A stretch of 64,000 nucleotides of DNA, taken from a virus (lineage: Duplodnaviria; Caudoviricetes). The notes under the pieces are model-generated. The model made no database searches. It was not told where the DNA came from and saw only the letters and a program-made list of their open reading frames with translations. The position numbers were made by a program, and so were the translations under genes. Shown here piece after piece: positions 2,622-35,956 of this stretch (the first letter of the stretch is position 1; every line of letters begins with the position of its first letter). Where the stretch lies: IMG/VR virus record IMGVR_UViG_3300027708_000013, one strand, 5' to 3'.

Positions 2622-3125
2622 TTACCAAACTAAACTGTAGTTGACCACTTCACTTTGACGACTGATGTCTTTGACAAAGTAAGCACACATGGGCCCGTCA
2701 ACACCGTTTTCCAGGGGCACTGCCAACAGTTGTCCAGGCTTGAGTTTGGGAAAATACCATTTGACATCTTGATAAATGTCTACAATTTCCACCGGATAAA
2801 AGTCCGGACGGAAACTGGTCTTGGGATTGAATGCAAAGGCCGAGAATCCCCTATCGTTGATACTTGTCAGGGGTACCACTTCTAAATCGCCCATGTCTTT
2901 TTCGCCAATCAACAGTTGCCAATCCACTGGCATACGAATGGTGTGTTCACCAATCTTCAACACCAGGGCTGGACTGTTGAAGCTTTCCATAAAGATCAAG
3001 GGAATATAAAAGTAGTCTGGATCCTTGGGATTACTGTTGTCCAGCACACAGAAATTGAGTTCGTCAATCTCGTCGGGTATTTCATCTAAGGGATAACTTC
3101 TATTTTCTAAAGTCAAAATTCTCAT
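2622..3125 (-). CDS. Hypothetical beta-rich protein, possibly a degenerate Hint-like fold
   Basis: 167 aa, translationally coupled to uvsW. The fold guess rests on pattern only. Confidence 0.7.
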   Translation of the reverse strand: MRILTLENRSYPLDEIPDEIDELNFCVLDNSNPKDPDYFYIPLIFMESFNSPALVLKIGEHTIRMPVDWQLLIGEKDMGDLEVVPLTSINDRGFSAFAFNPKTSFRPDFYPVEIVDIYQDVKWYFPKLKPGQLLAVPLENGVDGPMCAYFVKDISRQSEVVNYSLVW

Positions 3126-4579
3126 TGCCAGTCTGCTTTCTCTATTGTGTAGGGGTATTGAGCTTCCGTATAAAATTTCTTACGTGCGGTTAAATGTCTT
3201 TTTGCGAATTTACAGGTGCTGGTGATGTCCCAGATTTGCACATGATCTTTGTCTTCGGCTTTTCTGATGCCACGCCCGATGCTTTGTATGACTCGAACAA
3301 AACTTTTGCCCGGCTCAAGTAACACAAGATTAAATATCCTAGGGATATTAATACCCACAGCAGCAACACCATAGGTAGCAATGATAATTTTATCACTACT
3401 GACGGCAACTTCATCGTATTCATCTTTTCTCTCCTGAGCCTTGGTTGATCCCGATACAAACACAGCACGTTCGCCTAAGCGTTCCAACAACAGCTTTCCT
3501 GTGGCAATTCTATCTACCAAGATAAGTGTGTTGCCAGTTTCGTTTACACTGTTTATCAACTGTGCCAGGTAATCAAGTCTACCTGCTGTTTCGGTCAAGT
3601 ATTTAAGCTCGCTTTGGTAGTTGGTATATTCAACGTGGTCTATCAACTGTACTATATTTACGTGACAACGGGCCAGGTGGCCCGCTTCTTGAAGTTCCGA
3701 CGCACTTAATCGACCCACTACTGAGCCTAGACTACAAAAGATACTGGTCTTTTCGTAATCTTCTCGGGGCACGGTACCAGTGAGTCCCCAGCGTATGGGC
3801 ACATGGGCAAACACTCCGGTCAGCAAAGTCTTTAGTGCATCGGCCTTGGCCATATGTACTTCATCCACCATGACCAACACCACACCTTCAATAAACTCGC
3901 CAATGGTGACCTCGGCCTCTGCCGACTTGGTGTTCTTTAATAGGATGTTTAGGCTTTGCCAAGTGCAAATGGTGTGTGTTCGACCAAATTCTTTTCTATC
4001 GCCAAAGTACACTCCCACATCTAGTCCTAGATTTTTGTAGTCGTCTTCGGTCTGTGTCACTAGACTTTTGTTGGGCACAATGACAATGGATCTGCCATAC
4101 TGTTCCACACTGCGACTCAAGGCCGCGGTCATAATAGTTTTGCCAGCACCAGTGGCTATTTCTTGTATACTCTGTGGATTACTTAAAAAGTTATTGATAA
4201 TTTCCACTTGATAGTCGCGAAACACTATGGGTTCGCCGGCTCGGGGATGGCCTGCGGGCCATGTTTGATCGCTGAAACTATCTTCTCGAAATTCTGCAAA
4301 CTCAAACTGTGTGCGGTAGTCACGAACATCCTCCAACTCAACATCGTATCCTTGGGATTCCAGGATGGGCAGGATATCCGGCAACAGGTTTACATAACTG
4401 GTGCCACTGAGTTGAAAGAACGCAACCTTGCCGTCCCATCTGCCCAATCTCACTGCGGGTTGATATCTGGCACCGGGTATTTCAAATTTGAACCGATCCA
4501 CTAGCTTTTTACGTGTGGCCAAATCAAGACCTTCAATCTTGATGTTGACTTCATCACGTATTACTAATTTAGCTTTCAA
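3122..4579 (-). CDS. uvsW: UvsW-like SF2 DNA helicase
   Basis: FRDYQ (Q motif), ATGAGKT (Walker A), DEVH, GLTGT, QSIGRGIR; N-terminal GRWDGK typical of UvsW. Confidence 0.9.
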   Translation of the reverse strand: MKAKLVIRDEVNIKIEGLDLATRKKLVDRFKFEIPGARYQPAVRLGRWDGKVAFFQLSGTSYVNLLPDILPILESQGYDVELEDVRDYRTQFEFAEFREDSFSDQTWPAGHPRAGEPIVFRDYQVEIINNFLSNPQSIQEIATGAGKTIMTAALSRSVEQYGRSIVIVPNKSLVTQTEDDYKNLGLDVGVYFGDRKEFGRTHTICTWQSLNILLKNTKSAEAEVTIGEFIEGVVLVMVDEVHMAKADALKTLLTGVFAHVPIRWGLTGTVPREDYEKTSIFCSLGSVVGRLSASELQEAGHLARCHVNIVQLIDHVEYTNYQSELKYLTETAGRLDYLAQLINSVNETGNTLILVDRIATGKLLLERLGERAVFVSGSTKAQERKDEYDEVAVSSDKIIIATYGVAAVGINIPRIFNLVLLEPGKSFVRVIQSIGRGIRKAEDKDHVQIWDITSTCKFAKRHLTARKKFYTEAQYPYTIEKADWQ

Positions 4580-5432
4580 AATATACTTTGGTTATAGATT
4601 GTCGTTGTGCAATTTCTTTTAACAATTCATCTCTAGGCCGAGTTTCAATTAATTCTGCTACAGGAAACCTCAACGGTAACAGTCGAGGATCTTCAAATTT
4701 AGCAAATCCCTGACTGTTAAAGAACTCTTTATTCTTTATATAGTATTGTAACATATTCTCCAAGGTGCTATCAACCTGAGTTTTAAAAAACCTAACTGCA
4801 AAATCTGCACTGTAAACTCCAAATGGTCGAAATGCCTCCTGGCTGATGTATTGATCTTTATCAAGGGCAAGGTCTTCTAGGGTTTTACCTATCTCACAAT
4901 AGTTTAAGCACACAGAGCCAAATCCAGGATCAAGTGTTCCGTATTCCTCCATCAAATCGGGATCAAGTACATGAACTTTGGGTAGTCCGTACCAAGTACA
5001 CACAAAACGTGGTTGGTTACCTCTGGCTACTGATTCGCAACGGTGTACATTGATATTTAAATCAGCCATGGCTTGTTTAACTGTTGCAGGTGCAGTGTTC
5101 CAAAATTTGTTTGATTGCTGATCTAGCAAACCATGATATTGTTCAAAAATACTGTGTAGATAATTAAGCGTATCTTGATCCTGCACACTGGATATCGTTC
5201 GGGTAATAATATTATTGTGACTGTTGATGGTGTCGATACTGGCCTGTATCATTGCCACAGCACGAGATTCTTCTTGTGCCACACTGTTGAATCCATAAAA
5301 CCTGTCAGGATGGTCCAATGGATACGGCTCTCTGGCCATCATACGTTCCAGCCACTGAGTGGCTATGGGTGTGCGTAACACTTTAAATCGCAATGCAAAT
5401 TGGTCTGAGCCTAGTTCAATACACAATATCAC
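4569..5432 (-). CDS. Hypothetical protein (family with LNxLH...LNxxVHxxE motif; paralog-like to 46661-47437)
   Basis: 287 aa, coupled to uvsW; shares spaced motifs with the 46661-47437 product. Confidence 0.7.
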   Translation of the reverse strand: MILCIELGSDQFALRFKVLRTPIATQWLERMMAREPYPLDHPDRFYGFNSVAQEESRAVAMIQASIDTINSHNNIITRTISSVQDQDTLNYLHSIFEQYHGLLDQQSNKFWNTAPATVKQAMADLNINVHRCESVARGNQPRFVCTWYGLPKVHVLDPDLMEEYGTLDPGFGSVCLNYCEIGKTLEDLALDKDQYISQEAFRPFGVYSADFAVRFFKTQVDSTLENMLQYYIKNKEFFNSQGFAKFEDPRLLPLRFPVAELIETRPRDELLKEIAQRQSITKVYFES

Positions 5433-6565
5433 AATCGTTTTACCTTAGTGTTGTTCTTCTTATTGTACACTTCTTGTGCCACATACACAACCTTTTCGGC
5501 CTGTTGTAACATGTGTTGCCTGTCTCCTCCAAACACCATGCCAACACTGCTGATCAACAATCCAATGGGCCGATCCACAAGTGGTTGCTGTGTATGTATA
5601 TACTGTTGCATTTTAAAAACTTCATCGGTGCCAACTCGTCTTTGTAACTGTTTCAACATGCGATAGGAACTGTTGGGCTCGTAGATCACCACAGGGTAAC
5701 GATTCACAGCTTCAGCATAATCCAACACAGTGTCAAAGTCAACATTGTTGGCAAATGTAGCGGGATCAAGTCTGAGTTCTCTATGCACCAATAAATTATA
5801 AAATTTGGCACCACGTGTGGCCATGATGGATTCGGCAATGGCTGGCTCCACAGTGTAGCCCAACACACCACTCATGTCCACCAGGTACAGCAGGCGATCC
5901 AGGCCAAACCCACCGTGAGAGTTGATGTATTCTCGCAGGCTGTCTGGTGAGTTGCGTATGTCAAGTTGATCCCCGTTGATATACAGTTCTATAGCATAGG
6001 GCTGTGATTCAACCTGATGAATTTGATCCATGAGACTGTGAACAGCTGAGTCGATTTCAAATCGGTTTTTATTGGCCCAAGTGGTTAGCCAACTTACGTT
6101 GTATTCTGTCACTGCCGCAGTCCATACTCGGTGATTTTGATCCCATCTTACCTCACCTTGACTGGTTTTGGAAAAGTCTCTTATGTCGCCGATGTGGTCA
6201 TTGTTGAATGGAAACCGTATCAACAATCTATCTCCGTCGCGGGTCAAAGAACAAGTGTAGTCCAGTTGACGCAAGGGCTGTCTCCATACAGGTTGACGCA
6301 CAGGTTCAACATCAATACCTTGTGCCTGCAACTGTCGTTGGTATTTGAGTACAATCTTGACCAGCAGGTCGGCCTGGCGTAGGGTCAAGGACTGTGATAC
6401 AGAAACTGAAGTGGCCATGCTTTCCAGTACACCAACATCGTATCTGGCCAAGCTGATTATGGGTTTGATGTCGGCCAACCATGGATTAAGCAGTTGTCCA
6501 GACACAGGATCTCTGTGTCCCACTATCACTTCTAAATAATCTTCCACATGAGTAAATTGTCGCAT
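5429..6565 (-). CDS. Hypothetical protein with HARP-like motif
   Basis: LLIRFPFNNDHIGDIRDF...VRWDQNHRVWT resembles the HARP consensus FPY..x..I+.I..R.WD...K.W. Confidence 0.6.
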   Translation of the reverse strand: MRQFTHVEDYLEVIVGHRDPVSGQLLNPWLADIKPIISLARYDVGVLESMATSVSVSQSLTLRQADLLVKIVLKYQRQLQAQGIDVEPVRQPVWRQPLRQLDYTCSLTRDGDRLLIRFPFNNDHIGDIRDFSKTSQGEVRWDQNHRVWTAAVTEYNVSWLTTWANKNRFEIDSAVHSLMDQIHQVESQPYAIELYINGDQLDIRNSPDSLREYINSHGGFGLDRLLYLVDMSGVLGYTVEPAIAESIMATRGAKFYNLLVHRELRLDPATFANNVDFDTVLDYAEAVNRYPVVIYEPNSSYRMLKQLQRRVGTDEVFKMQQYIHTQQPLVDRPIGLLISSVGMVFGGDRQHMLQQAEKVVYVAQEVYNKKNNTKVKRL

Positions 6566-31455: not shown

Positions 31456-31484
31456 AGTGTAACATCTATCGCAATATGTGTCTA
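31456..31484 (-). promoter_or_regulatory. Sigma70-type promoter of the ncRNA-rpoZ-tRNA-Ser unit
   Basis: TAGACA-17-TACACT; the predicted start falls 1-3 nt before the ncRNA stem. Confidence 0.65.
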
Positions 31485-31603
31485 GCGTTTTTGATGGTTT
31501 TTGAGTCGGGAAAACCGTCAAACCCGGTGTCAACAGCCCATCCCCGGTTTCGTTGACAGCGGATGCTGATTAACAACCTTGCGGTGCGGGGTCAGCAACA
31601 ACT

Positions 31604-32582: not shown

Positions 32583-32600
32583 ATGTTATTACTTATAGTG

Positions 32601-32676
32601 TGGCGCTCTCGACCGGATTCGAACCGGTGTACTCACCGTGAAAGGGTGATGTCCTAGGCCTCTAGACGACGGGAGC
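32601..32676 (-). tRNA. tRNA-Glu(TTC)
   Basis: TCACC-CTTTCAC-GGTGA, CCA. Confidence 0.92.
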
Positions 32677-32686
32677 ATAAAACTGG

Positions 32687-32799
32687 TGTTTGTGTTTGGC
32701 GCTTGAATCCACGGCAACCCTGACTCTTCATGGCCGGTCCTGACACGTGGTCGACTTTGGTCAGTATTTCGGTGTTCCATTGTAGTTGCTACACAAACA
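32687..32799 (-). ncRNA. tRNA-like RNA without a canonical anticodon arm or CCA
   Basis: Closing stem TGTTTGTGT/ACACAAACA; T-loop-like GGATTCAAGCGCC near the 3' end. Confidence 0.55.
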
Positions 32800-32820
32800 T
32801 AATCTTGACAAGATACTCTG

Positions 32821-32892
32821 AAGCGGGGGCTGGATTCGAACCAACGACCTTCAGGTTATGAGCCTGGCATGCTACCGCTACACTACCCCGCA
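32821..32892 (-). tRNA. tRNA (CAT), initiator-like, CCA not encoded
   Basis: TGCGGGG start with 1:72 mismatch; CCAGG-CTCATAA-CCTGA arm. Confidence 0.8.
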
Positions 32893-32926
32893 TCAGAATA
32901 TCCTATTTCTCTCTTACGCATAGACT

Positions 32927-33172
32927 TTAATCAAATGGTATTGGTTTTTCTGGTGTTGCTATCAACTCTTCTACTACAAATACGTCAAAATTCTTTTCAT
33001 CTTCTGGATGTTTTATACAGTCCACAAACCATCCAAACTTATAACGCCAATGATAAAATTGTCCTTCATCGGCGTTCCAACGAGCCTCTGTGGCATTACG
33101 GCATTGACCACGATAGTAAGCACCGTGGATCAAATCCTGTCGAGCAATCTTTGCCTGATATTGATCTTCCAT
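32927..33172 (-). CDS. Conserved phage hypothetical protein within the tRNA array
   Basis: Start MEDQYQ at 33172 after AAGGA; YYRGQCRNATEARW...HWRYKFG...HPEDE..FDVF. Confidence 0.75.
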   Translation of the reverse strand: MEDQYQAKIARQDLIHGAYYRGQCRNATEARWNADEGQFYHWRYKFGWFVDCIKHPEDEKNFDVFVVEELIATPEKPIPFD

Positions 33173-33199
33173 TATATTTTCCTTGTTGCTGTGTAGGCT

Positions 33200-33370
33200 C
33201 CGGCCACTTGCTGTCATACAAGCCCCGGAGTGGAATTCATCGTTAGCCATGTTCTCAGTCTGTAATGGCAGACAGTGTTGACCGATCAGGGCAATCAACC
33301 ACCCACTTGCGTCAGCAGAGCAAGTTACCCCCGATTCAAAGCTCGGCAACTTATGACAAAACTTGGCCGG
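33200..33370 (-). ncRNA. Unassigned ~171 nt multibranched RNA
   Basis: CCGGCCA/TGGCCGG plus TGTCATA/TATGACA closing helix; internal hairpins ACTTGC/GCAAGT, GTTGA/TCAAC, GTCTG/CAGAC. Confidence 0.6.
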
Positions 33371-33434
33371 CCCCACTAGTGGGATACCATTTAAACTGGG
33401 CTGTCTTTTCGCGTTATATCCCAGTACCATGACT

Positions 33435-33509
33435 TGGCGGTCTCAAGGAGTAACGATCTCCTTCTTCAGCAGTGACAGTGCTGTGTGCGTCCATGAACAC
33501 TTTGAGACC
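33435..33509 (-). tRNA. tRNA-Asp(GTC), non-canonical T-loop
   Basis: CAGCA-CTGTCAC-TGCTG; T-loop ATCGTTA; G73, CCA. Confidence 0.9.
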
Positions 33510-33598
33510 CAAATTAGTGACCCGGTTCGTAAACAGTATTGATTGATTTACAGGGGCGTCAGGCCTCCAATGGACTTTTTAGGGTGCCAATTCTTTTG

Positions 33599-33699
33599 AC
33601 TATATTGAAACACACTGTTGAGATTTCACTTTTCAAGTCAGGGTCCGGATGACCAAGCGCCGCTTCTCGCAGGTAGAAAACAATGTGCTTCAATATAGT
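33599..33699 (-). ncRNA. Unassigned RNA closed by a 21-bp helix
   Basis: ACTATATTGAAGCACATTGTT pairs with AACAGTGTGTTTCAATATAGT; the two non-Watson-Crick positions are G-U only on the minus strand. Confidence 0.6.
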
Positions 33700-33701
33700 A
33701 T

Positions 33702-33838
33702 GTTTGTGGTAAGGATTCGCACCTTACACCACGGTTGCCCTAAATTACTCGATGATAGTCTCAACCAGTGCGGCCGCACCTTCGAGTAGTTCCACCTTTC
33801 ACCCAACCGTATATACCTGTCTCTTATACGACACAAAC
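33702..33838 (-). ncRNA. tRNA-like RNA (~137 nt) with a large insert in place of the anticodon loop
   Basis: Acceptor-like GTTTGTG/CACAAAC, T-arm GTAAGG-TGCGAAT-CCTTAC, stem ACGGTT/AACCGT enclosing TACTCGA/TCGAGTA; no CCA. Confidence 0.65.
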
Positions 33839-33843
33839 TTACC

Positions 33844-33961
33844 ATATTAAAACTATATCAATATCTTCCTTCTCTGACAAGAAGGCGTTTCGCAGTGTGT
33901 CAGCACCACCGAATGTTGACTCCGATCAGGAGTATGGCACCCGTCGATATAATTTTAATAT
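33844..33961 (-). ncRNA. Unassigned RNA closed by an 18-bp helix
   Basis: TATTAAAATTATATCGA/TTGATATAGTTTTAATA with G-U pairs on the minus strand; internal hairpins ACTCC/GGAGT and CCTTCT/AGAAGG. Confidence 0.6.
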
Positions 33962-33964
33962 AGC

Positions 33965-34060
33965 GCCTTTCACAAGGCTTATATTTTGCTACTTGATTTG
34001 TTAAAGAACTGTAATTTCTTACTATACATGTATTATACGGTATTGTGAATTACCAGTCAA
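33965..34060 (-). promoter_or_regulatory. Internal promoter with boxA and GNRA hairpin (rrn/nut-like antitermination leader)
   Basis: TTGACT-17-TATAAT (34032-34060), GTTCTTTAACAA boxA-like (33998-34009), GCCTT-GTGA-AAGGC hairpin (33965-33978). Confidence 0.65.
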
Positions 34061-34093
34061 CCAAAATACTGTTGCATATTTACAACAAATTAT

Positions 34094-34185
34094 TGGCGGA
34101 AGGCAGAAGAGTCGAACTCCATCCCCGTTAGGAGAACCTGGTTTTCAAGGCCAGTCGCAGGACCATCCCCGCTGCATTACCTTCC
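34094..34185 (-). tRNA. tRNA-Ser(TGA) with 8/4 fold
   Basis: 8-bp acceptor GGAAGGTA/TGCCTTCC, 4-bp T-stem GGAG/CTTC, loop CTTGAAA, long variable arm, G73, CCA. Confidence 0.85.
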
Positions 34186-34191
34186 ATGTCT

Positions 34192-34276
34192 TGGTGGGAA
34201 TGGTGAGACTCGAACTCACACGCCTTGCGGCGGCGGCTTCTAAAACCGCTTCGGCTACCAGTTACGACACATTCCC
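34192..34276 (-). tRNA. tRNA-Leu(TAG)
   Basis: GCGGT-TTTAGAA-GCCGC, long variable arm, CCA. Confidence 0.92.
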
Positions 34277-34689: not shown

Positions 34690-34763
34690 TGGTAGGCCCG
34701 GAAGGTAATGCTCCTTCTTTTGCGGATTAAAAGTCCGCTACTTTACTTTTAAGTTACAAGCCC
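34690..34763 (-). tRNA. tRNA-Lys(TTT), divergent D- and T-loops
   Basis: GCGGA-CTTTTAA-TCCGC; T-loop AGCATTA; D-loop lacks GG; CCA. Confidence 0.82.
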
Positions 34764-35443: not shown

Positions 35444-35527
35444 TGGTGGAGAATACTGGGATCGAACCAGTCGTGCCTGCGGCGCCGGATTTACAGTCCA
35501 GTGCATCACCATTGATGCTTCTTCTCC
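35444..35527 (-). tRNA. tRNA-Tyr(GTA)
   Basis: CTGGA-CTGTAAA-TCCGG, long variable arm, CCA. Confidence 0.92.
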
Positions 35528-35697: not shown

Positions 35698-35754
35698 ATA
35701 ATTTATAACACACTCCGCCACGGCGATTTCACTCCCACCTGGTTCCAGAATGTG

Positions 35755-35849
35755 TATAGTCGAACACTCGGGAGTGAGACTTGCACTCACACAGCAGGCT
35801 CTCATCGTCCCGCATCCTAGCATTAGATCATCCCAAATGCTCGACTATA
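35755..35849 (-). ncRNA. tRNA-like domain on an extended 19-bp helix, no CCA
   Basis: TATAGTCGAGCATTTGGGA/TCCCGAGTGTTCGACTATA (G-U on minus); D-loop-like GATCTAATGCTAGGAT; T-arm GTGAG-TGCAAGT-CTCAC; 10-nt pseudo-anticodon loop. Confidence 0.62.
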
Positions 35850-35956
35850 TACTGATTTTTCACACTACACAAAGTGCTCCATCCTAGTATCCGCCCGTTC
35901 AACATGTTATCTTTATAGTGCCCTGTCATGGACCTCGTTTCCGAGACACTTAAAAC

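Follow-up and report, generated by a model that had tools for sequence, protein, structure and literature searches.

What are the long helices that close stretches of sequence between the tRNA genes of this phage, and what do they enclose? The 64,000-nt stretch analysed here (the window) is a piece of a large T4-like phage with a T4-type terminase and a TctC-family receptor, and open reading frames resembling GroEL/ES and UvsX/UvsY can be recognised by eye. Its tRNA array runs from 35697 to 30831 on the minus strand, and all 24 tRNAs predicted by ARAGORN are on that strand. Two segments of the array, referred to here as cassettes A and B, consist of an interior, the cargo, enclosed by two complementary arms. 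Judging from sequence comparison, the helices formed by these arms are probably leader-trailer processing stems for host RNase III that serve as a standard wrapper for small RNAs within the tRNA precursor (probability about 0.7).

Cassette A is closed by 21 consecutive pairs on the minus strand (arms 33679-33699 and 33599-33619), as an earlier note on this DNA had described, with G-U pairs at positions 12 and 17. The same note gave cassette B 18 bp at 33844-33961; this helix is present and in fact reaches 21 bp (33841-33964), of which positions 1, 3, 13 and 20 are G-U on the minus strand. Departures from pairing in both helices are exclusively G-U on the tRNA (minus) strand, which had been taken as a sign of selection on RNA. 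By itself this sign is weak (four G-U against zero A-C arise by chance about once in 16), and it gains strength at the level of the stem family described below, where 123 representatives have 152 G-U against 29 A-C (p = 2.5e-21). Without positions 9, 12 and 17 the excess shrinks to 37 G-U against 17 A-C (p = 0.009), so the strand bias is due mostly to two conserved wobble pairs. Folding energies also differ between the strands, with MFE z values of -5.0 (minus) versus -2.5 (plus) for A and -5.3 versus -2.8 for B. Between 30701 and 36300, helices of at least 18 bp with at most four G-U pairs and an interior of at least 20 nt number four on the minus strand (A, B, C and D) and one on the plus strand; the same criteria give a mean of 0.003 on 300 dinucleotide-resampled sequences. 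C shares the architecture, and its stem matches the family poorly, with a profile score of 4.7 as against 55.6 for A. The interiors of A and B are both multi-hairpin and mutually unrelated, in agreement with the distinct domains that the note had seen. The features, from 5' to 3' on the minus strand, are as follows.

35752..35852, minus strand: cassette D, helix-closed; its G·U and U·G are spaced as in the family, and its cargo has a T-arm-like hairpin
34032..34060, minus strand: sigma-70-type promoter (TTGACT, 17 nt, TATAAT), matching the consensus at 11 of 12 positions
33998..34009, minus strand: boxA-like motif GTTCTTTAACAA, conserved in relatives
33965..33978, minus strand: leader hairpin that abuts the first cassette slot, conserved in relatives
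33944..33964, minus strand: 5' arm of the 21-bp helix of cassette B
33862..33943, minus strand: cargo of cassette B, three hairpins
33841..33861, minus strand: 3' arm of cassette B
33701..33837, minus strand: tRNA-like unit between B and A, not a cassette, recognised by sequence and fold
33679..33699, minus strand: 5' arm of cassette A, the canonical family stem; predicted RNase III cut at 33692/33691
33620..33678, minus strand: cargo of cassette A, 19 distinct variants
33599..33619, minus strand: 3' arm of cassette A; predicted cut at 33605/33604
33510..33597, minus strand: conserved 88-nt unit following cassette A, without a long closing helix
31159..31447, minus strand: unit C, a 21-bp helix of a different sequence type with an interior of 247 nt

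The central features are arranged as a sub-operon in the order leader, B, tRNA-like unit, A, 88-nt unit and tRNA-Asp. Relatives, given as L-numbered loci, are IMG/VR contigs of up to 400 kb. The promoter is kept in L001, L230, L299, L300, L301, L307 and L309, and its weight rests on this conservation because promoter-like matches in the region are not above those in shuffled sequences. Downstream of it, the boxA-like motif is one that we take to resemble the boxA of rRNA-operon (rrn) leaders, and the leader hairpin persists despite altered letters in both stem and loop (L001, L230, L300, L301 and L303). Scanning with the leader yielded two contigs only, both already in the locus set. The tRNA-like unit has a 7-bp acceptor-like stem, a T-arm-like hairpin and a long insert replacing the anticodon loop. 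Nearly identical copies of the 88-nt unit are found in L300, L301, L303, L305 and L312, and it precedes tRNA-Asp in most relatives. An 8-bp complementarity on the minus strand links the start of this unit (33576-33583, UGGCACCC) to the 5' portion of cargo B (33934-33941, GGGUGCCA); since relatives carry the unit without B, it may be due to chance. No homologs of the tRNA-like unit, B, C or D are found by nhmmer across the collected loci. Immediately upstream of the promoter lies a tRNA-Ser(UGA)-like gene with a long D-stem that was missed by ARAGORN (34098-34185, minus strand); its top score is as tRNA-Sec, at 35.8 bits, which is under the gathering score.

The stem of cassette A belongs to a family. 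Its two arms, written as one strict pattern, match at least 119 viral stretches, nearly all of them near tRNAs and on the tRNA strand; among the matches listed, those with nearby tRNAs are on the tRNA strand, and three stems match in reverse too. A strand-neutral scan for inverted repeats near tRNAs gives 197 cassettes in 95 loci, with up to nine per locus and a median interior of 69 nt. The cargos range from about 30 to 250 nt in length and form 123 clusters, of which 34 are recurrent, 89 are singletons and 14 have T-loop-like motifs. That 89 of 123 clusters are singletons and the median folding z is only -0.5 weakens the case for a function of every cargo. The cargos are unlikely to be coding, as the only open frames span 33-41 codons and lack a start close to the 5' end. 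Rfam was scanned in 14 loci; no cargo there has a match among the matches listed, and the non-tRNA entries are one GOLLD and one tmRNA, both outside the called cassettes. Cassette-bearing tRNA arrays hold a GOLLD RNA in L162 (9154-9615) and a betaproteobacterial-type tmRNA in L182 (2496-2823), the latter a weak hint to the host group. The habitat of cassette-bearing phages appears to be freshwater. Among the 185,579 prokaryote genomes of GTDB, short interiors give 0 matches and longer interiors one, namely a 4.9-kb contig from a Planctomycetia MAG with 15 tRNAs and four family stems (L316, JAPLNQ010000024.1), which is probably a misbinned phage fragment. The tRNA region of Ralstonia phage RSP15 has no family-type stem.

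The earlier note had proposed that the cassettes are modular, and this can be seen directly. Behind the same leader, the first slot holds at least six different cargos among relatives, including cargo A in L300 and L301, a cargo of about 200 nt in L303, another unit in L312 and tRNA-like cargos of two kinds, one in L001 and the other in L230 and L299. At the site of cassette D, the outer helix is kept in L001 around an unrelated interior. Both sites thus hold different interiors in relatives. Conversely, cargo A is found in several stem alleles beside different neighbours, and other cargos recur in as many as 10 different stem alleles. At 110-135 nt, the commonest cargo begins with GGUAUCGUG, contains a GGAAGCAC motif and occurs in L079 at 4792-4963 and in 15 other cassettes; it is found within 10 different stem alleles and is without a listed Rfam match. 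Around cargo A, mismatched arm pairs from two stem alleles are present in L313 (1771-1871) and L312 (5955-6055), and a second copy of cargo A in L299 (near 3040-3140) also has arms from two stem alleles. These chimeras may be recombinants or assembly artefacts. In L002, an intact tRNA-Met sits in a 22-bp leader-trailer helix (3381-3483) and a degenerate copy with the same arms lies at 4951-5048, which is possibly a snapshot of a tRNA becoming a cargo.

Cargo A provides the clearest case of a conserved interior. Its fold is a three-way junction of the closing stem, a 4-bp hairpin (33660-33672) and a long hairpin (33627-33659) with a UGAA bulge and a 9-nt apical loop that contains a palindromic hexamer (33644-33649). 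Viral and metagenome scans give 19 distinct variants, and 95.4% of the cells in their alignment are paired, a level reached by 0 of 500 shuffles (slid controls 35-38%). Pair changes on both sides number 19, with 15 in the closing stem and four in the cargo; the long hairpin is recovered by RNAalifold, and cargo A is more conserved than its own flanks. The earlier note had named a lack of conservation in the interiors as evidence that would count against it, and for A the opposite is found, with 19 variants retaining the fold through compensatory changes. Covariation within the interior of A comes from few independent events, and part of this covariation lay inside the search pattern. No more distant members are found with an nhmmer profile of cargo A. 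Matches to a pattern of the A core in viral contigs were mostly unrelated protein-coding sequence and were discarded.

The palindrome in the apical loop is present in 19 of 19 aligned variants of cargo A, as UCCGGA, ACCGGU or ACUAGU. Its central pair is impossible within one molecule, which hints at a kissing dimer, and cargo A may dimerise through this loop, as suggested by one or two independent events. The outer pair of the palindrome could instead close a tetraloop. Palindromic hexamers are not enriched across all cargos (149 versus 168 in shuffles), so the palindrome is specific to A. In the second cargo A copy of L299, the base preceding the palindrome is lost.

Cargo B is predicted to fold into three hairpins (33910-33943, 33892-33909 and 33868-33885), and two of the loops, 33898-33903 (CUGACA) and 33874-33879 (UGUCAG), are exact 6-nt complements. 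Loop-loop complementarity of at least 6 bp is found in 1 of 3000 shuffled B interiors and in 0 of 112 other cargos. The two loops are a candidate kissing pair that may compact B. Scans for homologs of B with the kissing-loop pattern, the third hairpin and B-type arms gave chance matches or nothing.

The earlier note further held that RNase III-like cleavage of the closing helices releases the cargos. The family stem can be compared with known determinants by taking its register from T7 R1.1 with the numbering of PMC1540722; this register places pb4-pb1 at helix positions 9-12, the distal box at positions 17-18 and the cut at the boundary of positions 8 and 9. In that numbering, pb2 is pair 9:30, and U12:G27 and C13:G26 lie between the boxes (PMC1540722), while T7 R1.1 is cut at nt 5887, three bases beyond CCUU (PMC8708148). 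The arms of T7 R1.1 in the T7 genome read AAG-GU-CA-UU / AG-UG-GC-CUU, and those of cassette A read AAG-CA-CA-UU / AG-UG-UG-UUU. With the E. coli enzyme, U·G is stringently preferred at position 2 of the distal box, where changing UG to GU is 50-fold worse and A-U is more than 30-fold inhibitory; G-C or C-G at pb2 is strongly inhibitory, a weak pair is favoured at pb4, where G-C or C-G slows cleavage 7- to 14-fold with binding intact, and a single box set is sufficient (PMC1540722).

In the present sample, which was collected via one stem allele and placed in register by a seeded profile so that its percentages describe it alone, 56% of the 80 representatives outside the search pattern have U·G at position 17 and none has G·U (56-66% and 0% across the family). 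The U·G came from the data, since the profile was seeded with U-A at position 17. Position 11 (pb2) is A-U or U-A in 95% of the same 80 representatives and in 95-97% of the family, and the commonest place for a mismatch inside the helix is position 9 (pb4), at 24% of the 80. G-C or C-G is found at pb4 in 55% of all representatives and in 38% of those outside the search pattern. Cassette A itself has U·G at position 17 and U-A at position 18, and pb2 is A-U in both A and B. At pb4, A has G-C, which is 14-fold slower in E. coli, and B has the favourable A-U. Position 17 of B is A-U in the family register, and a U·G/U-A step lies at positions 13/14 if the register is shifted by 4 bp. Both helices have 13 of their 21 pairs on the cargo side of the predicted cut, against a minimum of 11 bp of uninterrupted duplex for a bacterial RNase III substrate. 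The family profile fits T7 R1.1 position by position and so supports the RNase III claim, with limits in the pb4 G-C of A and the distal A-U of B, which depart from the favoured state. These determinants are those of E. coli, and the preferences of the host's RNase III may differ. No RNase III gene is found in five large relatives, which points to a host enzyme. The Krinke-Wulff consensus served only as a lead.

The position of the stems relative to the tRNAs suggests how such processing could work. In 61 of the 197 cassettes the stem starts exactly at the 3' end of the upstream tRNA, whose terminal NCCA doubles as the first four bases of the stem, and in 17 of 197 the 3' arm overlaps the first bases of the downstream tRNA. 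Cassette A lies flush between tRNA-Glu and tRNA-Asp in L126, L158 and L256; in L238 and L253 it comes, as judged by eye, directly after the 3' end of a tmRNA-like sequence. Host RNA polymerase would start at the promoter and make one RNA that runs from the boxA-like leader to tRNA-Asp and includes B, the tRNA-like unit, A and the 88-nt unit. RNase III would bind each stem via one set of proximal and distal boxes on the cargo side and cut 8 bp in from the outer end of the stem. The freed cargo would keep about 12-13 bp of closing stem ending in a 2-nt 3' overhang (87 nt for the product of A), a shape expected to be exonuclease-resistant. In flush cassettes one cut would both separate the flanking tRNAs and release the cargo; by geometry, the upstream tRNA would keep a 4-nt trailer after CCA and the downstream tRNA a 3-nt leader, remnants that would then be ready for trimming and RNase P. 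Cassettes would probably be exchanged by recombination within the shared arms, and the cargos would most likely act in trans as folded RNAs. That they are decoys or ligands for host RNA-binding or tRNA-targeting proteins is speculation that we hold only tentatively.

Most of the evidence for processing is shared by a reading in which the stems bind RNase III and are cut slowly or never, acting as decoys that tie up the enzyme or being protected by it, with RNase P and RNase E releasing the cassettes by cutting at adjacent tRNAs. The pb4 G-C of A and of 55% of representatives would then be a catalytic antideterminant that leaves binding intact, and up to nine cassettes per locus would suit a decoy. 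However, many members have a cutting-favourable A-U or mismatch at pb4, a 14-fold slowdown is not a block, and the flush overlap with CCA would mask the 3' end of the tRNA unless the stem opens, which makes this reading unlikely. A smaller chance still is given to the full 21-bp stem being retained as a handle for a phage or host protein, comparable to Y RNA and Ro60, with the likeness to RNase III sites incidental. The outer 8 bp of the stem are indeed also strongly conserved, B and C fit the RNase III boxes poorly, and T-loop-like motifs as in tRNA mimics are found in 14 of 123 cargo clusters. The outer conservation is, however, partly explained by the overlap with tRNA ends, and a protein handle does not predict an asymmetric U·G at the exact distance of the distal box; moreover, no TROVE/Ro60 gene was found in five large relatives, of which three are 90% complete or better, and there is no Y-RNA-type Rfam match.

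Slightly less probable again is that the stem alone counts, by punctuating the tRNA precursor, and that the interiors are decayed tRNAs or neutral filler. Several cargos do resemble eroded tRNAs (L001 and L230), the 22-bp helix in L002 wraps a full tRNA-Met, and most cargo clusters are singletons with weak folding z. Yet cargo A exceeds its flanks in conservation and keeps its pairs by compensatory change, other cargos recur in up to 10 stem alleles, the loop complementarity of B is rare by chance, and punctuation would need only a short hairpin such as T7 R1.1. A DNA-level origin can also be considered, with the arms as terminal inverted repeats of a small mobile element or as attC-like sites that insert at the 3' ends of tRNAs; the same arms around unrelated interiors, often starting at the tRNA CCA, and the chimeric arm pairs of L313, L312 and the second copy in L299 could be cited in its favour. 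This is very improbable, as the chimeras may be assembly artefacts, orientation strictly follows transcription with conserved G-U at fixed positions, no target-site duplication is visible by eye at A or B, the arms overlap the ends of both flanking tRNAs, and the element is almost absent from the 185,579 prokaryote genomes. Taken together, the U·G of the distal box, the overlap with CCA and the conserved cargo are best accounted for by processing through host RNase III; none of these four readings does as well.

Several known identities for A and B were tried and rejected. Neither has an ARAGORN or Rfam tRNA match at E up to 10, which sets aside a tRNA or pseudo-tRNA, and neither matches a curated Y-RNA-type model. 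Rfam finds neither GOLLD nor ROOL in A or B, and the same search recovers the GOLLD of L162. Self-cleaving ribozymes (hammerhead, HDV/theta, pistol and twister) give no match at E up to 10 in 32600-34250, and by eye a hammerhead core is not completed in B. Overall, Rfam searches of A and B at the gathering threshold and at E up to 10 give nothing credible; the matches to mir-653 and osmY merely reflect a long stem or a fragment. In blastn of 33400-34100 against 50,697 phage records, the only match is tRNA-Asp in Ralstonia phage RSP15. The tRNA cluster of that phage contains ORF108 (L317, 2308-3663), annotated as an "RNA-binding protein", with Pfam matches to DUF2828 and DUF7788, a weak one to VWA and none to TROVE.

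Each ingredient of the proposed cassette has a precedent in rRNA stems, T7 R sites, T4 species I/II, GOLLD/ROOL or theta ribozymes. Intervening sequences excised from 23S rRNA are discarded. Like the cassettes they are stem-closed, about 100-200 nt long and excised by RNase III, but they sit inside a mature RNA, whereas the cassettes lie between genes and at least some of their cargos are conserved (PMC8708148). The RNase III stems around 16S and 23S rRNA likewise form a leader and trailer pair around a structured RNA (PMC8708148), within a polycistronic stable-RNA transcript that includes tRNAs and has a promoter and boxA-like leader upstream. In contrast to these, the cassette stems are only about 21 bp, occur in many copies and borrow part of their sequence from adjoining tRNA ends; where the rRNA stems surround one fixed RNA, the cassette stems surround unrelated cargos, more than 120 in number and about 30-250 nt long. 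T7 R1.1 and related early-region stems have the same box sequence and spacing and the distal-box U·G (PMC1540722, PMC8708148), and AAG..CA-UU paired with AG-UG..CUU or UUU is common to T7 R1.1 and the cassettes. The T7 sites are short hairpins between mRNAs with 4-5-nt loops and an internal loop at the cut, whereas the loop of a cassette is a whole RNA and its stem is fully paired, so that a cut of both strands is predicted.

T4 species I/II (rnaC and rnaD) are, like the cassettes, small stable non-tRNA RNAs of a T4-type tRNA operon (PMC2330249); they are co-transcribed with eight tRNAs (PMC2330249). T4 has two fixed species, and a shared wrapper or swappable cargo is not described in the portion of PMC2330249 drawn on here. 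GOLLD and ROOL are phage non-coding RNAs that also occur near tRNA islands and form homo-oligomers (PMC12286853), but at several hundred nt they are unlike A and B; a GOLLD gene is present in the cassette-bearing L162. Theta ribozymes at the 3' ends of phage tRNAs have similarly been proposed to release the tRNA (PMC10879173), but they are self-cleaving HDV-like folds, whereas the cassettes would be protein-recognised duplexes. In the literature covered, which includes few subscription papers, no description is found of phage tRNA arrays in which interchangeable cargos share an RNase III-type wrapper, and no Rfam family describing such cassettes was found. A catalogue of 10,006 candidate viral RNAs could include single cargos (PMC10690425).

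The stem offers a simple sequence handle that marks both ends of otherwise invisible small RNA genes, and one search with it leads to about 120 cargo types. It also predicts exact cut sites, which in vitro assays or lake metatranscriptomes already available could probe. The proposed route also suggests that phage tRNA maturation can begin with RNase III, rather than RNase E or a ribozyme, opening the precursor beside CCA, and it bears on the role of the extra stable RNAs in phage tRNA clusters, such as T4 species I/II, GOLLD and ROOL. A bolder and rather doubtful extension is that freshwater phages use the cassette, released by host RNase III, to shuffle more than 100 folded RNA effectors as a rapidly changing arsenal against host defences or against the host's control of translation. 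If true, the effectors would include tRNA mimics, self-dimerising RNAs and kissing-loop RNAs, and this arsenal would be the RNA counterpart of variable anti-defence gene islands.

Further elements are found on the minus strand of the array. Two tRNAs are detected by Rfam only, at 34693-34763 and 35447-35527, whose anticodons look by eye to be Lys(UUU) and Tyr(GUA), respectively. The segment 33185-33430, 3' of tRNA-Asp, is probably non-coding and a candidate for a further RNA, with about 230 nt conserved in L126 and L199 (E 2e-40) and partly in L135, L158 and L256. At 32687-32799 there is a tRNA-like unit with an expanded interior and homologs in L044, L054, L063 and L079; several of its homologs are wrapped by a closing helix of 16-18 bp of another sequence type. 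Lastly, a conserved non-coding element lies 3' of tRNA-Met at 31460-31600, with homologs in L020, L037, L039, L046 and L051.
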